Shown in pieces: positions 3,995-48,076 of a stretch of 64,000 nucleotides of DNA. The position numbers and the translations under genes are program-made. This stretch comes from Escherichia coli. Lineage in GTDB: Bacteria > Pseudomonadota > Gammaproteobacteria > Enterobacterales > Enterobacteriaceae. Every line of letters begins with the position of its first letter. Positions within the stretch are counted from its first letter, which is position 1. Below the pieces are notes generated by a model, which saw only the letters and a list, made by a program, of their open reading frames with translations, searched no databases and had not been told where the DNA came from. The stretch lies in the NCBI RefSeq assembly GCF_003334785.1, contig NZ_QOWV01000002.1; one strand, 5' to 3'.

Positions 3995-6028
3995 TTATTT
4001 CACCTGATGACCCGGTTTAGCACCAGCATCCGGGCTTAGCAGGAAGATATCTTTCCCGCCTGGACCGGCAGCCATCACCATGCCTTCGGAGATTCCAAAG
4101 CGCATTTTACGTGGTGCCAGGTTAGCCACCATAATGGTGTGACGACCAATCAGTGCCTGCGGATCCGGGTAGGCAGAACGAATACCGGAGAAGACATTGC
4201 GTTTTTCACCGCCGAGATCCAGTGTCAGGCGCAGCAGTTTGTCAGAACCTTCAACAAACTCTGCGTTTTCGATCAGCGCTACGCGCAGGTCAACTTTGGC
4301 GAAGTCGTCAAAGGTGATGGTTTCCTGAATCGGATCATCTGCCAGTGGGCCAGTAACTGGCGCGGCAGCTGCTTTCACTTCTTCTTTAGAGGCTTCCACC
4401 AGAGCTTCAACCTGTTTCATATCGATGCGGTTATACAGCGCCTTGAACGGATTCACTTTGTGGCCCAGCAGCGGTTGCTGGATACCATCCCAGGTCAGTT
4501 CCGTATTGAGGAAGGCTTCTGCACGCTCGGTCAGTTTCGGCAGTACCGGCTTCAGGTAAGTCATCAGCACGCGGAACAGGTTGATGCCCATTGAGCAAAT
4601 CGCCTGCAGGTCAGCATCGCGACCTTCCTGTTTTGCGACTACCCACGGAGCCTGTTCATCGACATAGCGGTTAGCCAGATCAGCCAGCGCCATGATTTCG
4701 CGCACAGCTTTACCAAATTCACGGCTTTCCCACGCTTCACCAATCACTTCAGCGGCATCAGTGAAGGTTTTGTACAACTGCGGGTCAGCCAGTTCGTTTG
4801 CCAGCACGCCGTCAAAACGTTTGTTGATAAAGCCCGCGTTACGGGAGGCCAGGTTAACCACTTTGTTAACGATATCGGCATTCACGCGCTGAACGAAATC
4901 CTCCAGGTTGAGATCGATATCATCAATGCGCGAAGAGAGTTTCGCAGTGTAGTAGTAACGCAGGCTGTCAGCGTCAAAATGATTCAGCCAGGTGCTGGCT
5001 TTAATAAAGGTGCCGCGAGACTTGGACATCTTCGCGCCGTTCACCGTCACATAGCCATGAACAAACAGGTTGGTCGGCTTGCGGAAGTTGCTGCCTTCCA
5101 GCATGGCAGGCCAGAACAGGCTGTGGAAGTAAACGATATCTTTACCGATGAAGTGGTACAGCTCGGCGGTGGAGTCTTTCTTCCAGTATTCATCGAAGCT
5201 TACGCTGTCGCCGCGCTTGTCGCACAGATTCTTGAAAGAACCCATGTAGCCAATCGGTGCGTCCAGCCAGACGTAGAAATATTTGCCCGGCGCGTTCGGA
5301 ATTTCAAAACCAAAGTATGGCGCGTCGCGGGAGATATCCCACTGTTGCAGGCCGGATTCAAACCACTCCTGCATTTTATTTGCCACCTGCTCCTGCAACG
5401 CACCGCTGCGGGTCCATGCCTGCAACATTTCGCTGAAAGAGGGCAGATCAAAGAAGAAGTGTTCAGAATCACGCATTACCGGCGTAGCGCCAGAAACCAC
5501 CGATTTCGGCTCGATCAATTCAGTCGGGCTGTAGGTCGCGCCGCAGACTTCGCAGTTATCGCCGTATTGATCCGGGGATTTACATTTCGGGCAGGTGCCT
5601 TTCACAAAACGGTCCGGCAGGAACATGCCTTTTTCCGGATCGTACAGCTGAGAGATGGTGCGGTTTTTAATAAAACCGTTCTCTTTCAGGCGAGAGTAGA
5701 TAAGTTCTGACAACTGGCGGTTCTCTTCGCTGTGCGTCGAGTGATAGTTGTCATAGCTGATGTTAAAGCCTGCGAAATCAGTCTGATGCTCCTGACTCAT
5801 TTCGCCAATCATCTGCTCCGGGGTGATACCAAGCTGCTGAGCTTTCAGCATGATCGGTGTACCGTGGGCATCGTCGGCGCAGATGAAGTTGACCTCGTGG
5901 CCGCGCATTCGCTGGTAACGGACCCAGACATCAGCCTGGATGTGCTCCAGCATATGGCCGAGGTGGATTGAGCCGTTAGCGTACGGCAGTGCGCACGTCA
6001 CCAGAATTTTCTTCGCGACTTGAGTCAT
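3995..6028 (-). CDS. metG: methionine--tRNA ligase
   Basis: Translation [31 protein letters not shown]... with HIGH-type motif (HLGH), KMSKS motif and C-terminal tRNA-binding domain; start moved to ATG at 6026-6028. Confidence 0.95.
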
Positions 6029-6159
6029 AGTAGGCATTACTTCTTAATAGTGAAAAGGGGTTAGATAGTACCAAATGGGAAAATGTTAAGTAAGTACTTC
6101 TCTATATTCTTCAGGTAAACTATCAGCTGATGGTTTATCTATACAAAAAAGGAGTCGGG

Positions 6160-7269
6160 ATGAACGAACAATCCCAGGCCAAATCACCAGAAGCCTTGCG
6201 CGCAATGGTCGCCGGGACACTGGCCAATTTTCAGCACCCAACCCTGAAGCATAACCTCACCACGCTGAAAGCGTTGCACCATGTCGCCTGGATGGACGAC
6301 ACGTTGCATGTGGAACTGGTTATGCCGTTTGTCTGGCATAGCGCGTTCGAAGAGTTAAAAGAGCAATGTAGCGCCGAACTGCTGCGCATCACCGGGGCGA
6401 AAGCTATCGACTGGAAACTGTCGCATAACATAGCCACTCTGAAACGCGTGAAGAATCAGCCGGGAATTAACGGTGTGAAGAACATTATCGCGGTGAGTTC
6501 CGGTAAAGGCGGCGTGGGTAAATCGTCCACGGCGGTAAACCTGGCACTGGCGCTGGCGGCAGAAGGGGCGAAAGTCGGCATTCTGGACGCCGATATCTAC
6601 GGCCCATCAATCCCAACAATGTTGGGCGCAGAAAATCAGCGTCCAACTTCGCCGGACGGTACCCATATGGCACCGATTATGTCTCATGGCCTGGCAACCA
6701 ATTCAATTGGTTATCTGGTCACTGACGACAATGCGATGGTGTGGCGTGGACCGATGGCGAGCAAGGCGTTAATGCAGATGTTGCAGGAAACCTTGTGGCC
6801 GGATCTCGACTATCTGGTGCTTGATATGCCGCCAGGCACCGGTGACATTCAATTGACGCTGGCGCAAAACATTCCAGTAACCGGTGCAGTCGTGGTCACC
6901 ACCCCGCAGGACATCGCGCTGATCGATGCGAAAAAAGGCATTGTGATGTTCGAGAAAGTCGAGGTTCCGGTGCTCGGTATTGTCGAGAACATGAGTGTGC
7001 ATATTTGCAGTAACTGTGGTCACCATGAACCGATTTTCGGTACCGGTGGTGCAGAGAAACTGGCTGAAAAATACCATACACAGCTGCTGGGGCAGATGCC
7101 GTTACACATCTCCTTACGTGAGGATCTCGATAAAGGTACGCCAACGGTTATCAGCCGTCCGGAGAGCGAATTTACCGCTATCTACCGCCAGCTGGCTGAC
7201 CGCGTTGCAGCTCAGCTCTACTGGCAGGGTGAAGTCATTCCAGGCGAGATTTCCTTCCGCGCGGTCTAA
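6160..7269 (+). CDS. apbC: Fe-S cluster carrier ATPase Mrp/ApbC
   Basis: MNEQSQAKSPEALRAMVAG...; P-loop SGKGGVGKS; GGAG Shine-Dalgarno before ATG at 6160. Confidence 0.9.
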   Translation: MNEQSQAKSPEALRAMVAGTLANFQHPTLKHNLTTLKALHHVAWMDDTLHVELVMPFVWHSAFEELKEQCSAELLRITGAKAIDWKLSHNIATLKRVKNQPGINGVKNIIAVSSGKGGVGKSSTAVNLALALAAEGAKVGILDADIYGPSIPTMLGAENQRPTSPDGTHMAPIMSHGLATNSIGYLVTDDNAMVWRGPMASKALMQMLQETLWPDLDYLVLDMPPGTGDIQLTLAQNIPVTGAVVVTTPQDIALIDAKKGIVMFEKVEVPVLGIVENMSVHICSNCGHHEPIFGTGGAEKLAEKYHTQLLGQMPLHISLREDLDKGTPTVISRPESEFTAIYRQLADRVAAQLYWQGEVIPGEISFRAV

Positions 7270-7299
7270 CGCCTATTAACCATTCTGGTTATTCTTCAT

Positions 7300-7340
7300 A
7301 CACCGCAGAGATGTTACATTGATGCGGTGTATTAGTTTTT
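7300..7340 (+). terminator. putative intrinsic terminator after apbC
   Basis: Inverted repeat ACACCGCA...TGCGGTGT followed by T-rich tract ATTAGTTTTT. Confidence 0.4.
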
Positions 7341-7531
7341 GCCGCATTAATGAACACTTATTTAATACTGCGAATATTCTGCGGACCTTCGTCCGAAACT
7401 CTACAAAGTCGATTGATCATACAGGCAATGCTTCATTATCATCCTTCGTGGCTGTGTAGTGGATGTACAGCTATAGTTTGTTATGCACTCATTCTATCCA
7501 GGCATAACCTTTACTACAGGGATAACGTTCA

Positions 7532-7813
7532 ATGAATAAGTATTGGCTGTCAGGAATTATTTTTCTTGCCTATGGATTGGCTTCTCCCGCATTCTCTTCA
7601 GAGACTGCCACATTAGCGATTAATGGCAGGATCAGTCCCCCAACATGCAGTATGGCTATGGTTAATGGTCAACCTCAACAGCATTGTGGTCAGTTAACGT
7701 ATAATGTTGACACCCGTCATCTGTTTTCTTCGCCCGTCAAAGGTGTAACGACAGAAGTGGTTGTTGCAGGTAGCGATAGCAAACGTCGAATCGTGTTAAA
7801 TCGCTACGATTAA
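7532..7813 (+). CDS. yehE: small secreted protein YehE (93 aa, signal peptide)
   Basis: ORF with N-terminal signal-like sequence MNKYWLSGIIFLAYGLASPAFS; sits just upstream of the yeh fimbrial operon. Confidence 0.6.
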   Translation: MNKYWLSGIIFLAYGLASPAFSSETATLAINGRISPPTCSMAMVNGQPQQHCGQLTYNVDTRHLFSSPVKGVTTEVVVAGSDSKRRIVLNRYD

Positions 7814-7842
7814 TTTGGCAACCTGATTTTAATTGCATTTAG

Positions 7843-7881
7843 AAAGCCGAAATCATTTATATAAATGATTTCGGCTTTTTT
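7843..7881 (+). terminator. intrinsic terminator after yehE
   Basis: Perfect hairpin AAAGCCGAAATCATTTAT/ATAAATGATTTCGGCTTT followed by TTTTTT. Confidence 0.7.
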
Positions 7882-8105
7882 ATTGATATCAACAATACCA
7901 TTTACATAAATCTACATTAATTGATAGATGCGATAAATAGTTAATACTCTTAAATATTTGTTGTATTTATATTGCAATGGTTAATTTGTTTTAAATCAAT
8001 AAAACAATGTGTTTACATTGCGGCAACTTTTTTGATGTGAGAAATTTGTTTCCAAGAGATACAGACTCTTAACAACCAAAAATAAATTTTATTAAGGAAC
8101 ATATT

Positions 8106-8648
8106 ATGAAACGTTCAATTATTGCTGTCGCTGTCTTTTCTTCTTTTTTTATGAGCGCTGGAGTATTTGCTGCAGACGTTGATACCGGAACATTAACTAT
8201 TAAGGGGAATATTGCACAATCTCCGTGTAAATTCGAAGCGGGTGGTGATTCAGTAAGTATTAATATGCCGACTGTACCAACCAGTGTCTTTGAAGGTAAA
8301 GCTAAATATTCTACCTATGATGATGCAGTCGGTGTAACCAGCAGCATGTTAAAAATTAGCTGCCCGAAAGAAGTTGCTGGTGTAAAACTCTCGTTGATTA
8401 CCAACGATAAAATAACCGGTAACGATAAGGCGATAGCCAGTAGTAACGATACCGTGGGTTACTATCTCTATTTAGGTGATAACAGCGATGTCCTGGATGT
8501 TTCTGCACCTTTTAACATTGAGAGTTATAAAACAGCGGAAGGTCAATATGCTATTCCGTTTAAAGCAAAATACCTGAAACTGACAGATAACTCAGTGCAA
8601 TCAGGTGATGTGTTATCTTCTCTGGTTATGCGTGTGGCGCAGGATTAA
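8106..8648 (+). CDS. yehD: fimbrial major subunit (chaperone-usher pilus)
   Basis: 180 aa, signal peptide MKRSIIAVAVFSSFFMSAGVFA, pilin-like length and Cys pair; first gene of a subunit-chaperone-usher-adhesin operon. Confidence 0.85.
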   Translation: MKRSIIAVAVFSSFFMSAGVFAADVDTGTLTIKGNIAQSPCKFEAGGDSVSINMPTVPTSVFEGKAKYSTYDDAVGVTSSMLKISCPKEVAGVKLSLITNDKITGNDKAIASSNDTVGYYLYLGDNSDVLDVSAPFNIESYKTAEGQYAIPFKAKYLKLTDNSVQSGDVLSSLVMRVAQD

Positions 8649-8727
8649 TAAATAAAATTGTAAGTTTCTCCAGGTAATAAACATGGCCGCTATCCCATGG
8701 CGGCCTTTTAATTTAAGAGGCATTAAA

Positions 8728-9402
8728 ATGAAAGGATTATTATCTTTACTCATTTTTTCTATGGTCCTTCCTGCACATGCCGGAATTGTTATCTACGGGA
8801 CGCGCATTATTTACCCGGCAGAAAATAAAGAAGTGATGGTGCAGTTGATGAACCAGGGAAACCGTTCTTCGCTGCTGCAGGCGTGGATTGATGATGGCGA
8901 TACGTCATTACCACCAGAAAAAATTCAGGTTCCTTTCATGTTAACGCCACCAGTGGCAAAAATAGGGGCAAATTCCGGGCAGCAAGTAAAAATCAAAATT
9001 ATGCCGAATAAACTGCCCACTAATAAAGAAAGCATTTTTTATCTGAATGTTCTGGATATTCCACCAAATAGTCCAGAGCAAGAAGGTAAGAATGCACTGA
9101 AGTTTGCGATGCAAAACAGAATTAAGTTGTTTTACCGGCCAGCGGGTATTGCTCCGGTAAATAAAGCGACATTTAAAAAATTGCTGGTAAATCGCAGTGG
9201 CAATGGTTTGGTGATAAAAAATGACTCAGCTAATTGGGTGACGATTTCGGATGTCAAAGCTAATAATGTCAAAGTCAATTATGAAACTATTATGATTGCC
9301 CCCTTAGAAAGTCAGAGTGTTAATGTCAAAAGTAATAATGCAAATAACTGGCATCTGACCATTATCGATGACCATGGCAACTATATTAGTGACAAAATTT
9401 AA
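8728..9402 (+). CDS. yehC: periplasmic fimbrial chaperone (PapD-like)
   Basis: MKGLLSLLIFSMVLPAHAGIVIYGTRIIYPAENKEVMVQLMNQGN... has the typical chaperone N-terminus; start set at the ATG preceded by AAGAGG. Confidence 0.85.
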   Translation: MKGLLSLLIFSMVLPAHAGIVIYGTRIIYPAENKEVMVQLMNQGNRSSLLQAWIDDGDTSLPPEKIQVPFMLTPPVAKIGANSGQQVKIKIMPNKLPTNKESIFYLNVLDIPPNSPEQEGKNALKFAMQNRIKLFYRPAGIAPVNKATFKKLLVNRSGNGLVIKNDSANWVTISDVKANNVKVNYETIMIAPLESQSVNVKSNNANNWHLTIIDDHGNYISDKI

Positions 9403-11913: not shown

Positions 11914-12948
11914 ATGGAAATTCGCATAATGCTATTTATATTAATGATGATGGTTATGCCTGTGAGCTATGCGGCATGTTATAGTGAGTTATCTGTTCAG
12001 CACAACTTGGTTGTTCAGGGGGATTTTGCACTTACTCAAACACAAATGGCGACATATGAGCATAATTTTAATGATTCGTCATGCGTAAGTACAAATACTA
12101 TCACCCCTATGAGCCCGTCGGATATTATTGTTGGACTTTATAACGATACCATAAAATTAAATTTACATTTTGAATGGACCAATAAAAACAACATCACGTT
12201 GTCAAATAATCAGACCAGTTTCACCAGTGGTTATTCAGTTACGGTGACACCTGCGGCCAGTAATGCAAAAGTGAATGTTTCTGCGGGGGGCGGCGGTTCA
12301 GTGATGATTAATGGTGTTGCGACATTATCCAGTGCTTCATCATCGACACGCGGGAGTGCCGCAGTACAATTTCTACTGTGTTTATTAGGTGGCAAGTCAT
12401 GGGATGCATGTGTAAATAGCTACAGAAATGCATTGGCACAAAATGCAGGTGTCTATTCCTTTAATCTGACATTGTCATACAACCCGATAACCACAACCTG
12501 CAAACCGGACGATTTATTAATTACTTTAGACAGTATTCCCGTTTCACAATTACCAGCCACAGGTAACAAAGCAACAATAAATAGTAAACAAGGGGATATT
12601 ATTCTGCGTTGTAAAAATTTATTAGGTCAACAAAATCAAACATCACGGAAAATGCAGGTGTATTTATCAAGTTCTGACTTGTTAACCAACAGCAACACAA
12701 TACTGAAAGGTGCGGAAGATAATGGCGTAGGATTTATTCTTGAAAGTAATGGTTCGCCAGTCACACTTTTAAATATCACTAACAGCAGTAAAGGATATAC
12801 AAATTTAAAGGAAGTTGCGGCGAAGTCAAAACTTACAGATACAACGGTTTCAATTCCGATAACAGCCAGTTACTACGTCTACGATACAAACAAAGTTAAA
12901 TCTGGCGCACTGGAGGCAACCGCATTAATCAACGTGAAATACGACTAA
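11914..12948 (+). CDS. yehA: fimbrial tip adhesin-like subunit
   Basis: 344 aa with signal peptide; last gene of the chaperone-usher operon. Confidence 0.8.
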   Translation: MEIRIMLFILMMMVMPVSYAACYSELSVQHNLVVQGDFALTQTQMATYEHNFNDSSCVSTNTITPMSPSDIIVGLYNDTIKLNLHFEWTNKNNITLSNNQTSFTSGYSVTVTPAASNAKVNVSAGGGGSVMINGVATLSSASSSTRGSAAVQFLLCLLGGKSWDACVNSYRNALAQNAGVYSFNLTLSYNPITTTCKPDDLLITLDSIPVSQLPATGNKATINSKQGDIILRCKNLLGQQNQTSRKMQVYLSSSDLLTNSNTILKGAEDNGVGFILESNGSPVTLLNITNSSKGYTNLKEVAAKSKLTDTTVSIPITASYYVYDTNKVKSGALEATALINVKYD

Positions 12949-13004
12949 TAACAAGCAAGACGAGCAAGTGGCTAATAATAAAAAATAACAAGGTGTCTGC
13001 ATTT

Positions 13005-13031
13005 CCCCCTCATGATGAGGGGGCTTTTTTT
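13005..13031 (+). terminator. intrinsic terminator after yehA
   Basis: CCCCCTCATGATGAGGGGG hairpin followed by CTTTTTTT. Confidence 0.7.
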
Positions 13032-13368
13032 AGCGATGATAAAAAATCTCACCGTCGTAGGCTTTAATGATTTTACCGTCGGTGTCGCTGATCAACACGT
13101 ACGCGCCACCCATATAGGTCCAGTGCGTCCCGGCATCAGGCGCGGGCAGGTTACGCAACTGCCACTGCTTAATGTTGTACTCATCGGTACGGTACATTTC
13201 TGGTACGGTGTCCCCTGGTTTGAAATGCTTAAAGTCAGCAATGAAACTACTTAACTCATACTTAGAAATTCCCGAGGTATTGGTCGAACCCGCGGTGGCT
13301 GGTGCGGCCCAGGCGGCACTGGTAACCAGCAAAAGCGCACCCAGCAACATCTTATTTTTAATGGTCAT
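13030..13368 (-). CDS. rcnB: periplasmic nickel/cobalt homeostasis protein RcnB (112 aa)
   Basis: MTIKNKMLLGALLLVTSAAWA signal peptide; adjacent to rcnA; start trimmed to the internal ATG at 13366-13368. Confidence 0.85.
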   Translation of the reverse strand: MTIKNKMLLGALLLVTSAAWAAPATAGSTNTSGISKYELSSFIADFKHFKPGDTVPEMYRTDEYNIKQWQLRNLPAPDAGTHWTYMGGAYVLISDTDGKIIKAYDGEIFYHR

Positions 13369-13586
13369 AAACTCTCCACTTTGGGGATCTGTAATATCAG
13401 TCGCATATCTTTCCTGCCATACAATATAACTGACAAGCGATATTTTGTTAGTGATCCCATGATTTCGTAAAAAGTGTAAATGAAAGGATGCCCTAAAAGC
13501 ATCCTTAGCGAGCAGAGAGTCAGCGGAAATAGCTGATTTAAGAATCATCCTGGGCTGAAGATAACATGCAAGCCTAAAGGATTGAG

Positions 13587-14411
13587 TTATCGCATTATGC
13601 CCATGAAGCCATGTACGCCCATATACACACCGACTAAGCCAATCAACAGACTGGAAAAATAGGGGGCGCGTTTAGCGAGAGTGTTAAATCCGCTCCAGCG
13701 TTTTGCGACCTGCTGAACGCTGATTGCTGCGCCAACGCCTACGGTGACAAGCGTTAACGCCAGGCCAATGCTGAAACTGACGACCAGTGTTGCGCCCAGT
13801 GTCAGGGCTTTCAACTGAATGCATATCAACAGCACGGTAATTGCTGCCGGGCAGGGGATAAGGCCACCGGTTAAGCCAAATAACAAAATTTGCCAGTTGG
13901 TGACCTCTCTACCATCAAAGCGTCGTTTAATGTCATTGGCATGGGCTCGTGCATGGGCATCCTGATACTCGCCATGTTCGTGATGGTGATGATGTCCATG
14001 GTCGTGGTGATGTTCGTGATCGTGATGATGATGCTCATAATCATGCCCGTGCATATTCTCCAGCCAGTTGCGTTCGCCGCGCCAGGTACGCCAGAACATC
14101 CAGAACGCGGTGCTAATAATGATCACTGCGGAAATCAGCTGGAGCCACGGTTCTGCTGATTGAGCAGTAAAGAGCTTGCTGATCACCATCCCGCCAAAGG
14201 CAATTAACCAGACCACTGCGGTATGCGAAATAGTTGCTGCCAGTCCGAGCATCACCGCTTGTTTAATGGTGCCTTTGATGGCGATGATAAACGCCGCCAT
14301 CATCGTTTTTGAGTGCCCTGGTTCCAGGCCATGAAGCGCACCAAGTAAGATGGCGCTGGGGATGAAGAACCAGGCGTTTCCTTGCTGAAGAAGAGTTGTA
14401 AATTCGGTCAT
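13587..14411 (-). CDS. rcnA: nickel/cobalt efflux permease RcnA with histidine-rich loop
   Basis: 274 aa membrane protein with HGHDYEHHHHDHEHHHDHGHHHHHEHGE loop. Confidence 0.9.
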   Translation of the reverse strand: MTEFTTLLQQGNAWFFIPSAILLGALHGLEPGHSKTMMAAFIIAIKGTIKQAVMLGLAATISHTAVVWLIAFGGMVISKLFTAQSAEPWLQLISAVIIISTAFWMFWRTWRGERNWLENMHGHDYEHHHHDHEHHHDHGHHHHHEHGEYQDAHARAHANDIKRRFDGREVTNWQILLFGLTGGLIPCPAAITVLLICIQLKALTLGATLVVSFSIGLALTLVTVGVGAAISVQQVAKRWSGFNTLAKRAPYFSSLLIGLVGVYMGVHGFMGIMR

Positions 14412-14448
14412 GATAATAATTCTTAGTATTAATTCGGCAATCTGATTC

Positions 14449-14483
14449 TACTCCCCCCCAGTACCTGATACTACCCCCCAGTA
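14449..14483. promoter_or_regulatory. two RcnR operator dyads in the rcnA-rcnR divergent promoter region
   Basis: TACTCCCCCCCAGTA (14449-14463) and TACTACCCCCCAGTA (14469-14483), matching the TACT-G/C tract-AGTA RcnR operator architecture. Confidence 0.75.
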
Positions 14484-14531
14484 GATTAATAGTGCTATGA
14501 TTTTTCATATTCTTGTTAACCAGGTGTTGCC

Positions 14532-14804
14532 ATGTCTCATACAATCCGTGATAAACAGAAACTGAAAGCGCGTGCCAGTAAGATTCAGGGCCAGGTCGTG
14601 GCGCTCAAGAAAATGCTCGACGAGCCGCACGAATGCGCTGCAGTTTTACAACAGATTGCTGCTATCCGTGGCGCGGTAAACGGTCTGATGCGGGAAGTGA
14701 TTAAAGGTCATCTGACGGAACACATCGTTCACCAGGGGGATGAGCTAAAACGTGAAGAAGATCTGGATGTCGTTCTGAAGGTGCTGGATTCATATATCAA
14801 ATAA
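14532..14804 (+). CDS. rcnR: Ni/Co-responsive transcriptional repressor RcnR (CsoR/RcnR family)
   Basis: 90 aa, [61 protein letters not shown]. Confidence 0.9.
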
Positions 14805-14894
14805 TTTATTAACGCGATTGTAAAACTGCCGTTTTTCCTCGTTTACAACGCGTGCGCTGGACATTACCATCCTCCTCTGCGATTTATCATCGCA

Positions 14895-15026
14895 ACCAAA
14901 CGACTCGGGGTGCCCTTCTGCGTGAAGGCTGAGAAATACCCGTATCACCTGATCTGGATAATGCCAGCGTAGGGAAGTCACGGACCACCAGGTCATTGCT
15001 TCTTCACGTTATGGCAGGAGCAAACT
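14895..15026 (+). ncRNA. TPP riboswitch (thi-box) in the thiM leader
   Basis: Contains the conserved thi-box CTGAGAAATACCCGTATCACCTGATCTGGATAATGCCAGCGTAGGGAAG, ending at the thiM Shine-Dalgarno/ATG. Confidence 0.85.
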
Positions 15027-15815
15027 ATGCAAGTCGACCTGCTGGGTTCAGCGCAATCTGCGCACGCGTTACACCTTTTTCACCAACATTCCCCTCTTGT
15101 GCACTGCATGACCAATGATGTGGTGCAAACCTTTACCGCCAATACCTTGCTGGCGCTCGGTGCATCGCCAGCGATGGTTATCGAAACCGAAGAGGCCAGT
15201 CAGTTTGCGGCTATCGCCAGTGCCTTGTTGATTAACGTTGGCACACTGACGCAGCCACGCGCTCAGGCGATGCGTGCTGCCGTTGAGCAAGCAAAAAGCT
15301 CTCAAACACCCTGGACGCTTGATCCAGTAGCGGTGGGTGCGCTCGATTATCGCCGCCATTTTTGTCATGAACTTTTATCTTTTAAACCGGCAGCGATACG
15401 TGGTAATGCTTCGGAAATCATGGCATTAGCTGGCATTGCTAATGGCGGACGGGGAGTGGATACCACTGACGCCGCAGCTAACGCGATACCCGCTGCACAA
15501 ACACTGGCACGGGAAACTGGCGCAATCGTCGTGGTCACTGGCGAGATGGATTATGTTACCGATGGACATCGTATCATTGGTATTCACGGTGGTGATCCGT
15601 TAATGACCAAAGTGGTAGGAACTGGCTGTGCATTATCGGCGGTTGTCGCTGCCTGCTGTGCGTTACCAGGCGATACGCTGGAAAATGTCGCATCTGCCTG
15701 TCACTGGATGAAACAAGCCGGAGAACGCGCAGTCGCCAGAAGCGAGGGACCAGGCAGTTTTGTTCCACATTTCCTTGATGCGCTCTGGCAATTGACGCAG
15801 GAGGTGCAGGCATGA
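15027..15815 (+). CDS. thiM: hydroxyethylthiazole kinase
   Basis: 262 aa, [34 protein letters not shown]... Confidence 0.9.
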
Positions 15816-16612
15816 AACGAATTAACGCTCTGACGATTGCCGGTACTGATCCGAGTGGTGGTGCGGGGATTCAGGCCGATCTTAAAACCTTCTCGGCACT
15901 TGGCGCTTATGGTTGCTCAGTTATTACTGCACTGGTGGCGCAAAATACCCGTGGCGTACAGTCGGTGTATCGCATTGAGCCTGATTTTGTCGCCGCCCAG
16001 CTCGATTCGGTGTTCAGCGATGTGCGAATCGATACCACTAAAATCGGTATGCTGGCGGAAACCGATATTGTTGAAGCGGTGGCAGAACGGTTGCAACGTT
16101 ATCAGATCCAAAACGTGGTACTCGACACCGTTATGCTGGCAAAAAGCGGCGACCCGCTGCTTTCACCTTCGGCGGTTGCTACGCTGCGCAGTCGATTATT
16201 GCCACAGGTTTCATTAATAACGCCAAACTTGCCCGAAGCTGCCGCCTTGCTCGACGCGCCACACGCGCGCACCGAACAGGAAATGCTGGAACAAGGGCGA
16301 TCGCTGTTGGCGATGGGCTGTGGCGCAGTGCTAATGAAAGGTGGTCATCTGGATGATGAGCAAAGCCCGGACTGGCTGTTTACCCGCGAGGGTGAACAAC
16401 GGTTTACCGCACCGCGCATTATGACCAAAAACACCCACGGCACTGGTTGTACACTCTCTGCGGCGTTGGCTGCACTACGCCCGCGCCATACAAACTGGGC
16501 TGACACCGTACAGGAGGCAAAAAGCTGGCTTTCATCGGCGTTAGCCCAGGCCGACACGCTGGAAGTTGGTCACGGTATTGGTCCGGTTCACCACTTCCAC
16601 GCCTGGTGGTGA
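15812..16612 (+). CDS. thiD: hydroxymethylpyrimidine/phosphomethylpyrimidine kinase
   Basis: 266 aa, [34 protein letters not shown]...; start overlaps the thiM stop (ATGA). Confidence 0.9.
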
Positions 16613-16667
16613 GCACCGTACTATAGCTGCTTTGGTTATTGTCAGCCTTTGGCACTGACATTCAGGG

Positions 16668-17495
16668 ATGAAACCAATGCAGCTAAGAATTACCAGTCGA
16701 AAAAAACTCACCTCTCTATTATGCGCTCTTGGGCTAATTTCCATCGTTGCAATTTATCCGCGTCAGACGGTGAATTTTTTCTATTCGACAGCAGTTCAGA
16801 TTACAGACTACATCCACTTCTACGGTTATCGCCCGGTTAAATCTTTCGCTATTCGCATTCCTGCCAGTTACACCATTCACGGAATAGATGTTTCGCGCTG
16901 GCAGGAGCGGATCGACTGGCAGCGGGTGGCAAAAATGCGCGACAACGGTATCCGCTTACAGTTTGCTTTTATTAAGGCGACGGAAGGCGAAAAGCTGGTG
17001 GACCCCTATTTTTCGCGTAACTGGCAACTAAGCCGCGAAAATGGCCTGCTGCGTGGGGCGTATCATTATTTCTCCCCGTCGGTATCCGCTTCAGTTCAGG
17101 CGAGATTATTTCTGCAAACGGTGGATTTCTCACAAGGCGATTTCCCTGCCGTGCTGGACGTAGAAGAACGGGGAAAATTATCGGCAAAAGAATTACGCAA
17201 GCGGGTAAGTCAGTGGCTAAAAATGGTCGAAAAAAGTACGGGGAAAAAGCCGATTATTTACTCAGGAGCCGTTTTTTATCACACCAATCTGGCGGGCTAT
17301 TTCAATGAATATCCGTGGTGGGTGGCTCACTACTATCAACGTCGTCCGGACAATGACGGAATGGCCTGGCGCTTCTGGCAGCATTCCGACCGTGGACAGG
17401 TAGATGGCATCAATGGTCCGGTGGATTTTAATGTATTTAATGGCACGGTGGAGGAGTTGCAGGCATTCGTTGATGGGATTAAAGAAACGCCTTAA
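16668..17495 (+). CDS. yegX: GH25-type muramidase-like protein
   Basis: 275-aa ORF with N-terminal hydrophobic segment; assignment from synteny and family recollection. Confidence 0.7.
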   Translation: MKPMQLRITSRKKLTSLLCALGLISIVAIYPRQTVNFFYSTAVQITDYIHFYGYRPVKSFAIRIPASYTIHGIDVSRWQERIDWQRVAKMRDNGIRLQFAFIKATEGEKLVDPYFSRNWQLSRENGLLRGAYHYFSPSVSASVQARLFLQTVDFSQGDFPAVLDVEERGKLSAKELRKRVSQWLKMVEKSTGKKPIIYSGAVFYHTNLAGYFNEYPWWVAHYYQRRPDNDGMAWRFWQHSDRGQVDGINGPVDFNVFNGTVEELQAFVDGIKETP

Positions 17496-17546
17496 ATAAG
17501 AAGCAGTGATATACTCCCACCAGACTCCCCGGCAGGAAAAAGACAA

Positions 17547-18293
17547 ATGGAACAAGCGCATACCCAGCTGATTGCCCAACTGAACGAGCGTATTTTAGCG
17601 GCGGATAACACGCCGCTTTATATTAAGTTTGCCGAAACGGTAAAAAATGCCGTGCGCAGCGGGGTGCTGGAGCATGGCAATATTTTGCCCGGTGAGCGTG
17701 ATTTAAGTCAGTTAACCGGCGTTTCGCGCATTACGGTGCGCAAGGCGATGCAGGCGCTGGAAGAAGAGGGTGTGGTGACGCGTTCGCGCGGTTACGGCAC
17801 GCAGATCAACAACATCTTCGAATACTCGTTGAAAGAAGCGCGAGGTTTTTCTCAGCAGGTGGTATTGCGCGGGAAAAAGCCCGATACGCTATGGGTTAAC
17901 AAGCGTGTCGTGAAATGTCCCGAAGAAGTCGCGCAGCAGCTGGCGGTCGAAGCAGGAAGTGATGTCTTTTTGCTTAAGCGTATTCGCTATGTCGATGAAG
18001 ATGCGGTATCGATTGAGGAATCGTGGGTTCCGGCGCATTTAATTCATGATGTTGATGCCATCGGGATTTCACTTTATGACTATTTCCGCAGCCAGCACAT
18101 TTACCCACAACGTACGCGTTCCCGCGTTAGCGCCCGGATGCCGGATGCCGAGTTTCAGTCACATATTCAGTTAGATAGCAAAATACCGGTGCTGGTGATC
18201 AAGCAAGTGGCGCTTGACCAACAGCAACGGCCTATTGAGTACAGCATTAGCCACTGTCGCAGCGATCTATACGTTTTTGTGTGCGAGGAGTAG
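17547..18293 (+). CDS. yegW: GntR-family (HutC-like) transcriptional regulator
   Basis: N-terminal winged helix (RDLSQLTGVSRITVRKAMQALEEEGVV) plus UTRA-like C-terminus. Confidence 0.8.
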   Translation: MEQAHTQLIAQLNERILAADNTPLYIKFAETVKNAVRSGVLEHGNILPGERDLSQLTGVSRITVRKAMQALEEEGVVTRSRGYGTQINNIFEYSLKEARGFSQQVVLRGKKPDTLWVNKRVVKCPEEVAQQLAVEAGSDVFLLKRIRYVDEDAVSIEESWVPAHLIHDVDAIGISLYDYFRSQHIYPQRTRSRVSARMPDAEFQSHIQLDSKIPVLVIKQVALDQQQRPIEYSISHCRSDLYVFVCEE

Positions 18294-22817: not shown

Positions 22818-22975
22818 ACGCCTTATACGAACAACACCACCCCGTAGGACGGATAAGGCGTTTACGCTGCATCCGGCAACCTATGCCTGATGCGACGCTG
22901 AAGCGTCTTATCATGCCTACATAGCACTGCCACGTATGTTTACACCGCATCCGGCATAAAAACACGCGCACTTTG
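22818..22975. repeat. cluster of REP (repetitive extragenic palindromic) elements
   Basis: GGATAAGGCGTTTACGCTGCATCCGGCA, GCCTGATGCGACGCTGAAGCGTCTTATCATGCCTACA and TGTTTACACCGCATCCGGCA units. Confidence 0.65.
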
Positions 22976-23069: not shown

Positions 23070-25269
<2,200 letters not shown>

Positions 25270-25278
25270 GGACGGTAT

Positions 25279-25731
25279 ATGACTAACCTGTTTGTTCGTA
25301 GCGGAATTTCTTTTGTCGATCGTAGCGAAGTTTTAACCCATATCGGTAATGAGATGCTCGCCAAAGGTGTGGTTCATGATACCTGGCCACAGGCATTAAT
25401 TGCCAGAGAAGCAGAATTCCCTACCGGGATAATGCTTGAGCAGCACGCTATTGCAATACCGCATTGTGAGGCGATTCATGCTAAGTCGTCAGCCATTTAT
25501 CTGTTAAGGCCAACAAATAAAGTTCATTTTCAGCAAGCGGATGATGATAACGACGTGGCGGTATCGTTGGTTATTGCGTTGATTGTGGAAAATCCGCAGC
25601 AGCAATTGAAACTTTTACGCTGTTTATTTGGCAAGTTACAACAGCCCGATATCGTCGAGACACTAATCACTCTTCCTGAAACCCAGTTAAAGGAATACTT
25701 CACAAAGTATGTTTTAGATTCAGACGAATAA
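25279..25731 (+). CDS. gatA: galactitol PTS EIIA component
   Basis: 150 aa, position and size in the gat operon. Confidence 0.85.
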   Translation: MTNLFVRSGISFVDRSEVLTHIGNEMLAKGVVHDTWPQALIAREAEFPTGIMLEQHAIAIPHCEAIHAKSSAIYLLRPTNKVHFQQADDDNDVAVSLVIALIVENPQQQLKLLRCLFGKLQQPDIVETLITLPETQLKEYFTKYVLDSDE

Positions 25732-31075: not shown

Positions 31076-31234
31076 GAATATTTTTTGGTAAGCGTCAAAT
31101 ATGCGCGTTCTGGCTGTGCGTAGCCGGAACCTGTGGGAGCACGATGCCGATAAGTGAAAGGCATCGTGCTATGAAGGAGGATTCTATCGATGTGGTCAAT
31201 GGAAGACGGTTACCAGAGATAGGGCTTATGCATA

Positions 31235-31261
31235 AAAAAATAAGCCCGTGTAAGGGAGATT
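31235..31261. repeat. attL core (27 bp)
   Basis: AAAAAATAAGCCCGTGTAAGGGAGATT, identical to 61589-61615. Confidence 0.85.
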
Positions 31262-31340
31262 TAGGGTGTCACCAGTAGGGGCTTTCAACGGTACAATGCG
31301 GGTTTGAGCGGCATAAATTACCACTGAAAGCCCTTAAACG

Positions 31341-32354
31341 TTACTCTACTGTGGACACTGTGTGGACACTCTCGGCCTCAGTACCACCTCTTAGCGGATT
31401 AAGAGAAATGGCGTCCTGAAGGTACTCTGGCGCAAAATGAGCGTAAACCATAGTTTGCTCAATCCGCGTGTGACCTAGTATCCGTTGTAGCGTGATAATA
31501 CTTCCTCCATTAATCATGAAATGAGTGGCAAAGCTGTGCCTTAGTGCATGTGTGGCTTGCCCCATTGGCAAATCCGGTTTTATTGCTTTCATTGTTCGTC
31601 TGAAGCGAGGGTAATCAGCATCAGGGAATAAAAAACCTCGTTTGTTATCCGCGATCATTTTGGCAACAGCCTCTGAGATCGGGACGGTGCGTGGTTTGTT
31701 TGTTTTCGTTTTAACAAACGTGACGCGGTTATGGATGATATTTTCTGCTTTCAAACGAGCTGCTTCTCCCCAACGTGCTCCAGTACTCAGGCAAAGAATC
31801 GCAATCTTTTTGTTGTCGCCGTCAAGAGCAGCAAGCAGTAAGGCAATTTCTTCCTGCGTGAGATAGCCTGTGTCTGGTTTTTCCTCCTTAAGCCTTTTTG
31901 TCCCTCTGATAGGGTGCTCACCAAAGAATAACTCCGCTTCAATCAGGGCTGTAAACATGCCGCTAATACATGTTAAATCACGATTGATACTCGAAGGTTT
32001 AATACCCTGACTTCTTCGGGTGGCGCAGTACTGGCTGATAAGCGATTTCGTAATTTGAAATGCGCATGGGTCATTCGTTATTTTTGTGAAGATTTCAATT
32101 TTTCCAAGATTAGATTTCCCATGCTCTTCGTGTTTACCCTTTAAATCCCACCAGATCTGTGTCAGCTCCGACAGACGTCGCTTGTCTGTTGGTTTTGATA
32201 GCCATTCTTTATTGTGGTGGTTGTACAACGTGTATTTCTCGAAAGCGACAGCTTCGCTTTTCTTATCAAACTTCCTACGGATGCGTTTTCCATTACGTCC
32301 AGTAGGGCGGATGTCCACTTCATATCGACCATCATCGAGTTTTTTGATTGCCAT
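31341..32354 (-). CDS. int: phage P2-type tyrosine integrase
   Basis: 337 aa, MAIKKLDDGRYEVDIRPTGRNGKRIRRKFDKKSEAVAFEKYTLYNHH..., C-terminal catalytic HxxR...Y region. Confidence 0.95.
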   Translation of the reverse strand: MAIKKLDDGRYEVDIRPTGRNGKRIRRKFDKKSEAVAFEKYTLYNHHNKEWLSKPTDKRRLSELTQIWWDLKGKHEEHGKSNLGKIEIFTKITNDPCAFQITKSLISQYCATRRSQGIKPSSINRDLTCISGMFTALIEAELFFGEHPIRGTKRLKEEKPDTGYLTQEEIALLLAALDGDNKKIAILCLSTGARWGEAARLKAENIIHNRVTFVKTKTNKPRTVPISEAVAKMIADNKRGFLFPDADYPRFRRTMKAIKPDLPMGQATHALRHSFATHFMINGGSIITLQRILGHTRIEQTMVYAHFAPEYLQDAISLNPLRGGTEAESVHTVSTVE

Positions 32355-32469
32355 CAGAAAACCCTCCGAGTGGTGTGTTTTTTTGCGACTACTAATCGCT
32401 TTTTTCGTGGTGGCTGAAATTTAGCCACCAATAGTAGGCACTTGTGATGAATATATTCACGATGAATTG

Positions 32470-32769
32470 TTAACCAGTCTTTTGACCGGAGTGGGGCGAC
32501 GTTGTTTCGTTTTGCCCAAAGTGTGCGAGAGCGGGCGCAATTTGCCCGGACTCAGGAGCGATCTGATTGGTCATGAACCATAAAGTGTATTTGGTGAATT
32601 GTGGGGTCTGCAGGATGTTCATCATGACATCTGTTGGAGGTGTTGAACGACCACTTTCATAGTAACTCAGCGTGCCATACGGAACCCCTGTTAAATCAGC
32701 AAGTTGTTGTCTGCTCAAATACTCTGATTTTCGCATTAAGACTATCTTCTCGCTTATCGTGTTTGACAT
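32470..32769 (-). CDS. C: P2 immunity repressor C
   Basis: 99 aa, HTH-containing (LSRQQLADLTGVPYGTLSYYESGRSTP); divergent from cox. Confidence 0.85.
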   Translation of the reverse strand: MSNTISEKIVLMRKSEYLSRQQLADLTGVPYGTLSYYESGRSTPPTDVMMNILQTPQFTKYTLWFMTNQIAPESGQIAPALAHFGQNETTSPHSGQKTG

Positions 32770-32883
32770 GGTGTTTAGATCTCAATAGTATTTAGTTTAG
32801 ATGTAGATTGTTTAGTGCTTGGATGTGGGCACTAAAAGGCATTATAAGACATTAAACGCAATTCATGAGGGCTAGAGGACGAC
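32770..32883. promoter_or_regulatory. C/cox divergent promoter-operator switch region
   Basis: Intergenic region between the divergent C and cox genes with direct repeats TTTAGAT at 32774-32780 and 32796-32802 plus further TTTAGT copies. Confidence 0.5.
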
Positions 32884-33030
32884 ATGAGCAAGCAAGTAAC
32901 ACTCATGACTGATGCGATTCCTTATCAGGAGTTCGCAAAACTAATAGGAAAATCGACATGAAGTGGTTTACTGAATTTGGCCACCTGAACAGAGGTGATA
33001 TGCTCACCTCAGAACAACACAGGTGCCATA

Positions 33031-34178
<1,148 letters not shown>

Positions 34179-34398
34179 CTCGGTGGCCAGTTTTTGTTGA
34201 CCACTTCAACAGGAGCGGTTCGTCGGATGATCGATAAAGGAAAGCTGCCTGTAATTGATATGACCGATCCACAATCAGCTTCAGGTCGTGCAGGTGAATA
34301 TTGGGTATACCTTCCGGCATGGAATAACGGACTAAAACTGGCTTATGAAAGCCGCCCTAAAGAGATTCGTGACGGCTGGTTGATGTGGTTAGGTCTCG

Positions 34399-47647: not shown

Positions 47648-48076
47648 GTGAGGGTGACCGGACTTATTGAATCGCTGTCACCGTCAGGGCGTCGGCGACT
47701 GAGCGCCGAACTGGCGAAACGTCTGCGGCAGAGTCAGCAGCGCCGGGTGATGGCACAGAAAGCCCCGGACGGCACACCCTACGCACCACGCCAGCAGCAG
47801 AGCGCCAGAAAAAAGACCGATCGCGTTAAGCGAAAAATGTTTGCGAAACTTATCACCAGTCGTTTTTTGCATATCCGCGCCAGCCCGGAACAGGCATCAA
47901 TGGAGTTTTTCGGCGGGAAGTCACCGAAAATCGCCAGCGTGCATCAGTTCGGTCTGTCGGAAGAAACCCGGAAAGACGGTAAGAAAATTGATTATCCGGC
48001 GCGTCCTCTGCTCGGCTTTACCGGTGAGGATGTGCAGATGATTGAAGAGATTATCCTGGCTCACCTTGAGCGTTAG
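47648..48076 (+). CDS. late morphogenesis protein; by position gpL (head completion), but the C-terminal HQFG...PARP motif resembles the gpS/virion-morphogenesis family
   Basis: 142-aa ORF starting at GTG 47648 with no ATG in frame upstream; identity as L versus S cannot be settled without a search. Confidence 0.55.
   Translation: MRVTGLIESLSPSGRRRLSAELAKRLRQSQQRRVMAQKAPDGTPYAPRQQQSARKKTDRVKRKMFAKLITSRFLHIRASPEQASMEFFGGKSPKIASVHQFGLSEETRKDGKKIDYPARPLLGFTGEDVQMIEEIILAHLER

Follow-up and report, generated by a model that had tools for sequence, protein, structure and literature searches.

Does the perfect tandem repeat that closes the coding sequence of a phage integrase gene belong to the protein, to the messenger RNA or to the DNA itself? 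The question arises at the 3' end of int, the integrase gene of a P2-type prophage lying in the 64-kb stretch of Escherichia coli DNA analyzed here (the window). A reading made from the sequence alone had proposed that the repeat comprises candidate arm-type binding sites for the integrase (Int), embedded in the coding end of its own gene. The features on which the question turns are as follows.

31341 to 32354, minus strand: int, gene for the P2 tyrosine integrase (337 amino acids), with mismatches to P2 int at 7 of 1,014 nucleotides
31350 to 31357, plus strand: core-proximal repeat TGTGGACA, assigned below to the P' arm; the extended unit TGTGGACACT runs to 31359; exact match to the published consensus, inside the annotated footprint
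31361 to 31368, plus strand: core-distal repeat TGTGGACA, assigned below to the P' arm; the extended unit runs to 31370; 11 bp from the first repeat
31235 to 31261, plus strand: 27-bp core of attL (Int core-type site and crossover region), identical to the P2 attP core (AF063097 24356-24382) and to the copy in attR

The repeat at the 3' end of int

On the plus strand, positions 31350 to 31370 read TGTGGACACT (31350-31359), a single g (31360) and TGTGGACACT once more (31361-31370), which is the perfect tandem direct repeat that the sequence-only reading had described. On the complementary strand it overlaps codons 329 to 337 of int, where it encodes S V H T V S T V in a tail ending in AESVHTVSTVE and the stop; the placement of the repeat within the last codons of a 337-residue minus-strand open reading frame was therefore accurate, as were the int reading frame and the assignment of attL and attR. 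The distance to the attL core, which had been put at about 90 bp, is 88 bp when measured from the end of the 27-bp core to the start of the first repeat.

The repeat is unusual for the window. The exact motif TGTGGACA occurs twice in the whole 64 kb, both times here, and 31350-31370 is the sole exact tandem repeat in the window with a 10-nt unit and a gap of 0 to 2 nt. We compared the window with 1,000 dinucleotide-preserving shuffles: an exact same-strand pair at a spacing of 10 to 12 bp appeared in none of them (0/1000), and two pairs with at most one mismatch appeared in 2. The real window contains exactly two such pairs at that tolerance; both are on the plus strand, the members of each are spaced by 11 bp, and either att core has one of them next to it. 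The pair on the attR side consists of TGTGGTCA at 61530-61537 and TGTGGACG at 61541-61548. The sequence-only reading had noted the second of these as a related motif near attR, which is correct, and had missed its partner TGTGGTCA.

Identity with the mapped integrase sites of phage P2

As a reference we used the phage P2 GenBank record AF063097, in which the protein_bind features are described as experimentally derived; the mapping of the sites is based on these features together with a later paper from the same laboratory (PMC3448106). The corresponding regions of the window, with one feature given in the coordinates of the P2 record, are the following.

31349 to 31375, plus strand: Int-protected region, 'Int, P' arm' of AF063097 (24470-24496), with 0 mismatches in 27 bases; it spans both repeats
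31278 to 31351, plus strand: region bound by Cox, located between core and P' arm, protein_bind Cox of AF063097 (24399-24472), no mismatch
61526 to 61553, plus strand: Int-binding region of the P arm in attR, 'Int, P arm' of AF063097 (24293-24320), no mismatch; it contains the repeats TGTGGTCA and, as the second, TGTGGACG
61557 to 61590, plus strand: IHF region of the P arm, protein_bind IHF of AF063097 (24324-24357), with 5 of 34 bases different
61589 to 61615, plus strand: 27-bp core of attR, also serving cyaR, a host sRNA gene, as its 3' terminator end
AF063097 24356 to 24383: 'attP core' for Int, a protein_bind feature of the P2 record

Because the mapping to AF063097 is free of mismatches in both arms, the repeat at the end of int is the annotated P' arm, and the motif near attR belongs to the annotated P arm. 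The overlap of the repeats with the Int-protected region was established by sequence identity to the GenBank protein_bind feature only. In the P2 record, too, the P' arm feature overlaps the 3' end of int (24462-25475). Comparison with mapped P2 Int sites was the check that the sequence-only reading had named for its proposal; we found both arms base-identical to annotated features, so that the mapped arm sites carry the same sequence and not an unrelated one.

The published consensus for P2-type arm repeats is tgTGGaCa (Nilsson et al. 2011, PMC3448106), and both P' copies fit it exactly. All four arm repeats, starting at 31350, 31361, 61530 and 61541, have the same orientation (plus), are spaced 11 bp apart, and flank the core on both sides. 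In P2-type integrases, the N-terminal domain recognizes arm repeats of this kind and the core-binding domain recognizes the core (PMC3448106). The proposal of Int arm-type sites embedded in the coding end of int is supported by the P2 annotation and by the published consensus, and we regard the repeats as almost certainly the P' arm of the P2 attachment site, providing two predicted arm-type sites for the N-terminal domain of the P2 integrase.

The P' arm is already mapped, named and annotated in the reference genome, its consensus is published, and it has been known since 1993; the P2 Int footprinting paper is Yu & Haggard-Ljungquist 1993 (J Bacteriol 175:1239). The site described here is identical to the P' arm of phage P2 attP in sequence, in its placement with respect to core, Cox sites and int, and in the way it overlaps the int stop. 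In contrast to phage attP, it is found in the prophage (attL) configuration, within a P2 variant that is defective elsewhere; the site itself shows no difference. Arm-type sites could be recognized correctly from a bare reading of the sequence, and the feature opens no new question.

The domain layout of the protein is as expected for a heterobivalent integrase. Pfam places Int_N at residues 57-156 and Phage_integrase at residues 164-308, leaving the last 29 residues past the catalytic match, and the PDB entries for P2 integrase cover residues 46-337 (5c6k) and 162-337 (5dor). An N-terminal segment of about 45 to 56 residues lies outside the Pfam domains and 5c6k, and this part of a P2-type Int is the arm-binding domain (PMC3448106).

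Conservation of the repeats among P2-type integrase genes

We gathered about 290 int loci from annotated phages and IMG/VR, encoding Int proteins 46-100% identical to the query that retrieved them. Counts were made on the 88 distinct int 3' ends in which enough sequence could be seen. In 78 of these 88, two cores of the GTCCAC type (GTGGAC on the complementary strand) lie exactly 11 bp apart, within -31 to +20 nt of the int stop codon, and the pair is kept in integrases down to about 50% identity. Its relation to the reading frame is variable: the pair is wholly inside the open reading frame, as in P2, in 46 tails, straddles the stop in 11 and lies wholly downstream in 21, with the stop at most 31 nt past the first core and at most 20 nt ahead of it. 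The downstream group includes L-413C/WPhi, fiAA91-ss, HQ103, SEN5 and the Klebsiella phage ST16-OXA48phi5.4, and among the straddling tails those of the D8 type have their TAA stop provided by the second repeat itself. The other 10 of the 88 ends have no recognizable pair; these are divergent or recombinant C-termini, plus one locus, L044 (IMGVR_UViG_2671180903_000018).

One set of related loci illustrates the drift of the stop directly. The tail encoded by L077 and L080 ends in GGADAENVHIMSTLR followed by the stop. In L081 and L084 a GAA codon has become TAA, and Int ends in GGADA. The protein of these two loci is 10 residues shorter and terminates immediately ahead of the repeats, whose DNA has stayed the same.

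The same conclusion can be drawn at the level of single codons. In a set of 18 int genes (mean nucleotide identity 77%), third codon positions seldom stay fixed: gene-wide, just 7.7% of them are invariant. Within the repeats, GTC-CAC (codons 330-331) and G-TCC-AC (codons 333-335) are invariant or nearly so, and the most variable residues of the tail are 325-329 and 336-337. Because the cores are kept irrespective of coding while neighboring residues vary, what is constrained is the DNA motif with its spacing and not the peptide. Coding-independent conservation of the DNA comes from this analysis itself, as do the identity to annotated Int sites and the agreement with the consensus.

That the repeats coincide with the final nine codons of int is incidental: the arm sites are fixed, and the reading frame simply continues into them as far as the next stop. 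A modest addition to the known picture is the drift of the int stop: the pair of arm repeats stays in place, and the stop codon moves across it. The tail of this gene is an example of a DNA-binding site dictating the final residues of a protein.

At L044, one 11-bp unit has been lost, so that a single arm repeat is left and the int frame is shifted, ending in AESVHSRVTFKGFQW and a stop. The loss looks like slippage between the tandem copies.

Alternative explanations

Three other accounts of the repeats would do away with arm binding altogether. If Int needed a repeated C-terminal peptide (VHT-VST), the DNA repeat would be a by-product of selection on the protein; the repeat is indeed in frame, encoding S-V-H-T-V-S-T-V, and a similar tail is retained in many close relatives. 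We consider this very unlikely, since the DNA repeat is retained wholly past the stop in 21 distinct tails and across it in 11, the GAA-to-TAA change of L081 and L084 deletes the tail and leaves the repeat DNA intact, and synonymous positions in the GTCCAC cores are invariant or nearly so where adjacent amino acids vary. The Pfam catalytic domain, moreover, stops at residue 308, short of the repeat-encoded tail. The comparative data rule out protein-level selection on the tail, and we infer that the C-terminal peptide SVHTVSTVE is dispensable, a reading to which the natural TAA variants also point; a search for a part played by the Int C-terminus in dimerization found no report among the papers covered. 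An equally slim chance attaches to the idea that the repeats are sites for the excisionase Cox and not for Int. The annotated Cox region reaches the first repeat, overlapping it by 2 bp, and Cox boxes are likewise spaced 10-11 bp apart (PMC3936717). However, the cox-box consensus TTAAA(G/C)NC(A/C) (PMC3936717) is unrelated to TGTGGACA, Cox-box-like 9-mers span 31255-31342 and are absent over 31350-31370, and the TGTGGNCN pair is also present in the P arm, where AF063097 annotates no Cox site. The mismatch to the consensus and the positions of the 9-mers rule out a Cox-box identity for the repeat. We give almost no credence to a chance or replication-slippage duplication without function. Slippage can create short tandem repeats, and L044 has lost exactly one 11-bp unit, but an exact pair arose in 0 of 1,000 shuffles, the other att arm has a pair of its own, alike in spacing and orientation, and conservation extends down to about 50% Int identity.

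A different possibility is that the repeats have a second role besides DNA arm binding. Present twice in the int mRNA as GUGUCCACA, they might help int to regulate itself post-transcriptionally, for instance through Int binding its own message. The repeats are necessarily within the int transcript, and Yu, Barreiro & Haggard-Ljungquist 1994 (J Virol 68:4220) is cited by PMC11789052 among viral proteins regulated via binding to their own mRNA. GUGGAC, the complement of GUCCAC, is found in a second block of int with conserved synonymous sites (codons 5-14). Nevertheless, the GTGGAC of this 5' block shows no covariation with the repeats: the locus L110 combines GTG GAC with arms of the form TGTCTAC, and a mismatch is likewise seen in the D8 and 569R5 types. 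In many relatives the repeats lie past the int stop codon, and all of the observed conservation is accounted for by DNA-level arm binding. We therefore think such a second role improbable. The narrower claim that the P' repeats are the RNA element, or part of it, for the reported self-regulation of Int after transcription appears slightly less probable still; if it were true, occupancy of the arm-site sequence would be tied to integrase supply. Arm-type DNA sites for Int remain the reading that we prefer.

The block near the 5' end of int deserves a separate description. Codons 6-14 (approximately 32313-32339, minus strand) read CTC GAT GAT GGT CGn TAT GAA GTG GAC and are invariant, including at synonymous sites, in the 18 int genes. 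This block resembles the P arm and contains AGTGGACA, which is one mismatch away from the arm motif and lies on the strand opposite to the arm repeats. In the wider int set the synonymous sites of this block vary, and its conservation is weaker. SEN5, with GTA GAC and TGTAGACA arms, gave a first hint of covariation. We rejected codons 5-14 as an extra arm-type site or as an RNA partner of the 3' repeats, since SEN5-like loci, L110 among them, have either GTA or GTG with the same arms; in the enlarged sequence set, pairing or covariation of the conserved GUGGAC (int codons 13-14) with the arm repeats was unsupported.

Proposed role in integration and excision

With the repeats read as the P' arm, a mechanism can be proposed in which the parts given to Int binding, IHF and Cox are taken from literature and annotation. 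P2 Int is a tyrosine recombinase of the heterobivalent type: the 27-bp core would be bound and cut by its central and catalytic domains, and the direct repeats, one helical turn apart in each arm, would be held by its small N-terminal domain. The 11-bp spacing would place both repeats of an arm on one face of the helix. IHF is expected to bend the P arm, and Int bound at the P arm (beside the bend) and at the P' arm would bridge to the core; this bridging would assemble the intasome, leading to recombination of attP with attB on integration. On the stretch that separates the core from the P' arm, Cox occupies an array of cox boxes; it inhibits integration and promotes excision (PMC3936717, PMC7581858), and Cox bound in this position would lead to recombination of attL with attR on excision. 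In the prophage, attL has kept the P' arm and the Cox sites, beside int, and attR has kept the P arm with the IHF site.

Comparison with other phage systems

The arrangement is common to other P2-type phages. In WPhi/L-413C, fiAA91-ss, HQ103, D8, SEN5 and the Klebsiella phage ST16-OXA48phi5.4 the core has on either side a pair of direct repeats with 11-bp spacing, and other P2-type phages share the consensus tgTGGaCa and the position of the P' pair beside the int stop (PMC3448106), as here. Variants of the arm motif are found, with TATGGACA in D8 and 569R5 and TGTAGACA in SEN5. In L-413C, fiAA91-ss, SEN5 and the Klebsiella phage the repeats lie 2-16 nt downstream of the stop, unlike those in the window.

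Phage 186 belongs to the same family and also has a heterobivalent Int and a core flanked by direct repeats, together with IHF and Apl, which is a Cox-like factor (PMC3448106). Its arm consensus, YAYCGCCAYTY / tgccGCCActt, is however unrelated to that of P2, its sites are arranged as 3 + 2, and a separate open reading frame lies between int and attP, hence the absence of an overlap with int. We found no TGTGGACA-like matches at the int end of phage 186.

The arm sites of phage lambda (P1, P2 and P'1-P'3) differ from those of P2 in consensus, in number and in arrangement. The likeness lies in the design, described in general terms in PMC2951348: the N-terminal domain of a tyrosine integrase binds arm repeats far from the core, IHF bends the DNA and an excisionase sets the direction. 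For the integrase IntS of KplE1, arm sites in attL overlap the expression signals of the integrase gene itself (PMC2951348). In KplE1 it is the intS promoter, at the 5' end of the gene, that is overlapped, which leads to autorepression, whereas in P2 it is the 3' coding end.

The attachment sites and the surrounding prophage

Window positions 31235-32961 are 99.5% identical to AF063097 24356-26082, and the entire 30.4-kb element is collinear with P2, up to 61615. The 27-bp core AAAAAATAAGCCCGTGTAAGGGAGATT stands at both ends, in attL, which int adjoins, and in attR, which ogr adjoins. The P2-type prophage has kept its attachment-site architecture on both sides, with the core, the P and P' arm sites, and the IHF and Cox regions. 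The Cox region overlaps the P' arm footprint by 3 bp and contains Cox-box-like 9-mers in both orientations. In the IHF region, TTTCAATTTATTGTACG of P2 is replaced by TTTCATTGTATTACGCG, and the flanking Int arm sites and core are identical to those of P2.

The host gene at attR is cyaR (RyeE), which extends over 61592-61677 on the minus strand (Rfam CyaR_RyeE, 100.7 bits). As the att core is the 3' terminator end of cyaR, P2 integrates into the end of this gene and restores it at attR. The attL junction (31150-31450, comprising host flank, core, P' arm and int end) is present at a coverage of at least 80% in 816 of 5,426 complete E. coli genomes, which makes this site a common one for P2-type prophages. 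The host flank of attL was found in 5,291 of the 5,426.

The bacterial side of attL (31186-31234) itself resembles the phage P arm. It includes TCGATGTGGTCAATG, 15 nt identical to the first P-arm repeat and its flank, which is followed by a decayed second repeat and then by ACCAGA.ATA, with a 15-bp gap at the expected IHF site. From this resemblance, the chromosomal attB looks like a relic of an older P2-like attR.

Several changes distinguish the prophage from P2. An IS3-family element of 1,250 bp (window 32959-34208) lies in cox after P2 nucleotide 26079, at about codon 25. Its ends are TG...CA, the 3-bp target duplication flanking it is ACA (32956-32958 and 34209-34211), and it carries two open reading frames, orfA (32995-33333) and orfB (33360-34178). 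Because cox is interrupted and Cox is required for P2 excision, the prophage should be unable to excise despite its intact att sites. At window position ~47652-47657, P2 nucleotides 5950-8942 are missing and their flanks are contiguous. This deletion removes L, X, Y (holin), K (endolysin), lysA, lysB, lysC, R and the start of S, and the prophage is therefore defective for capsid completion, tail completion and lysis.

At window 51338-54803, P2 nucleotides 12630-17571, which comprise the 3' end of I (12193-12723), H, G and fun(Z), are replaced by about 3.5 kb of unrelated DNA. The replacement encodes a tail fiber (51509-52645) and an assembly protein (52647-53087), an oppositely oriented second set on the minus strand (53059-53661 and 53661-54203), and a DNA invertase (54225-54824). 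It looks like an invertible host-range cassette resembling the G segment of Mu. In the host DNA outside the prophage, Rfam models matched a TPP riboswitch at 14896-14992 (plus strand, 71.2 bits) and naRNA4 at 22847-22917 (plus strand, 64.5 bits).
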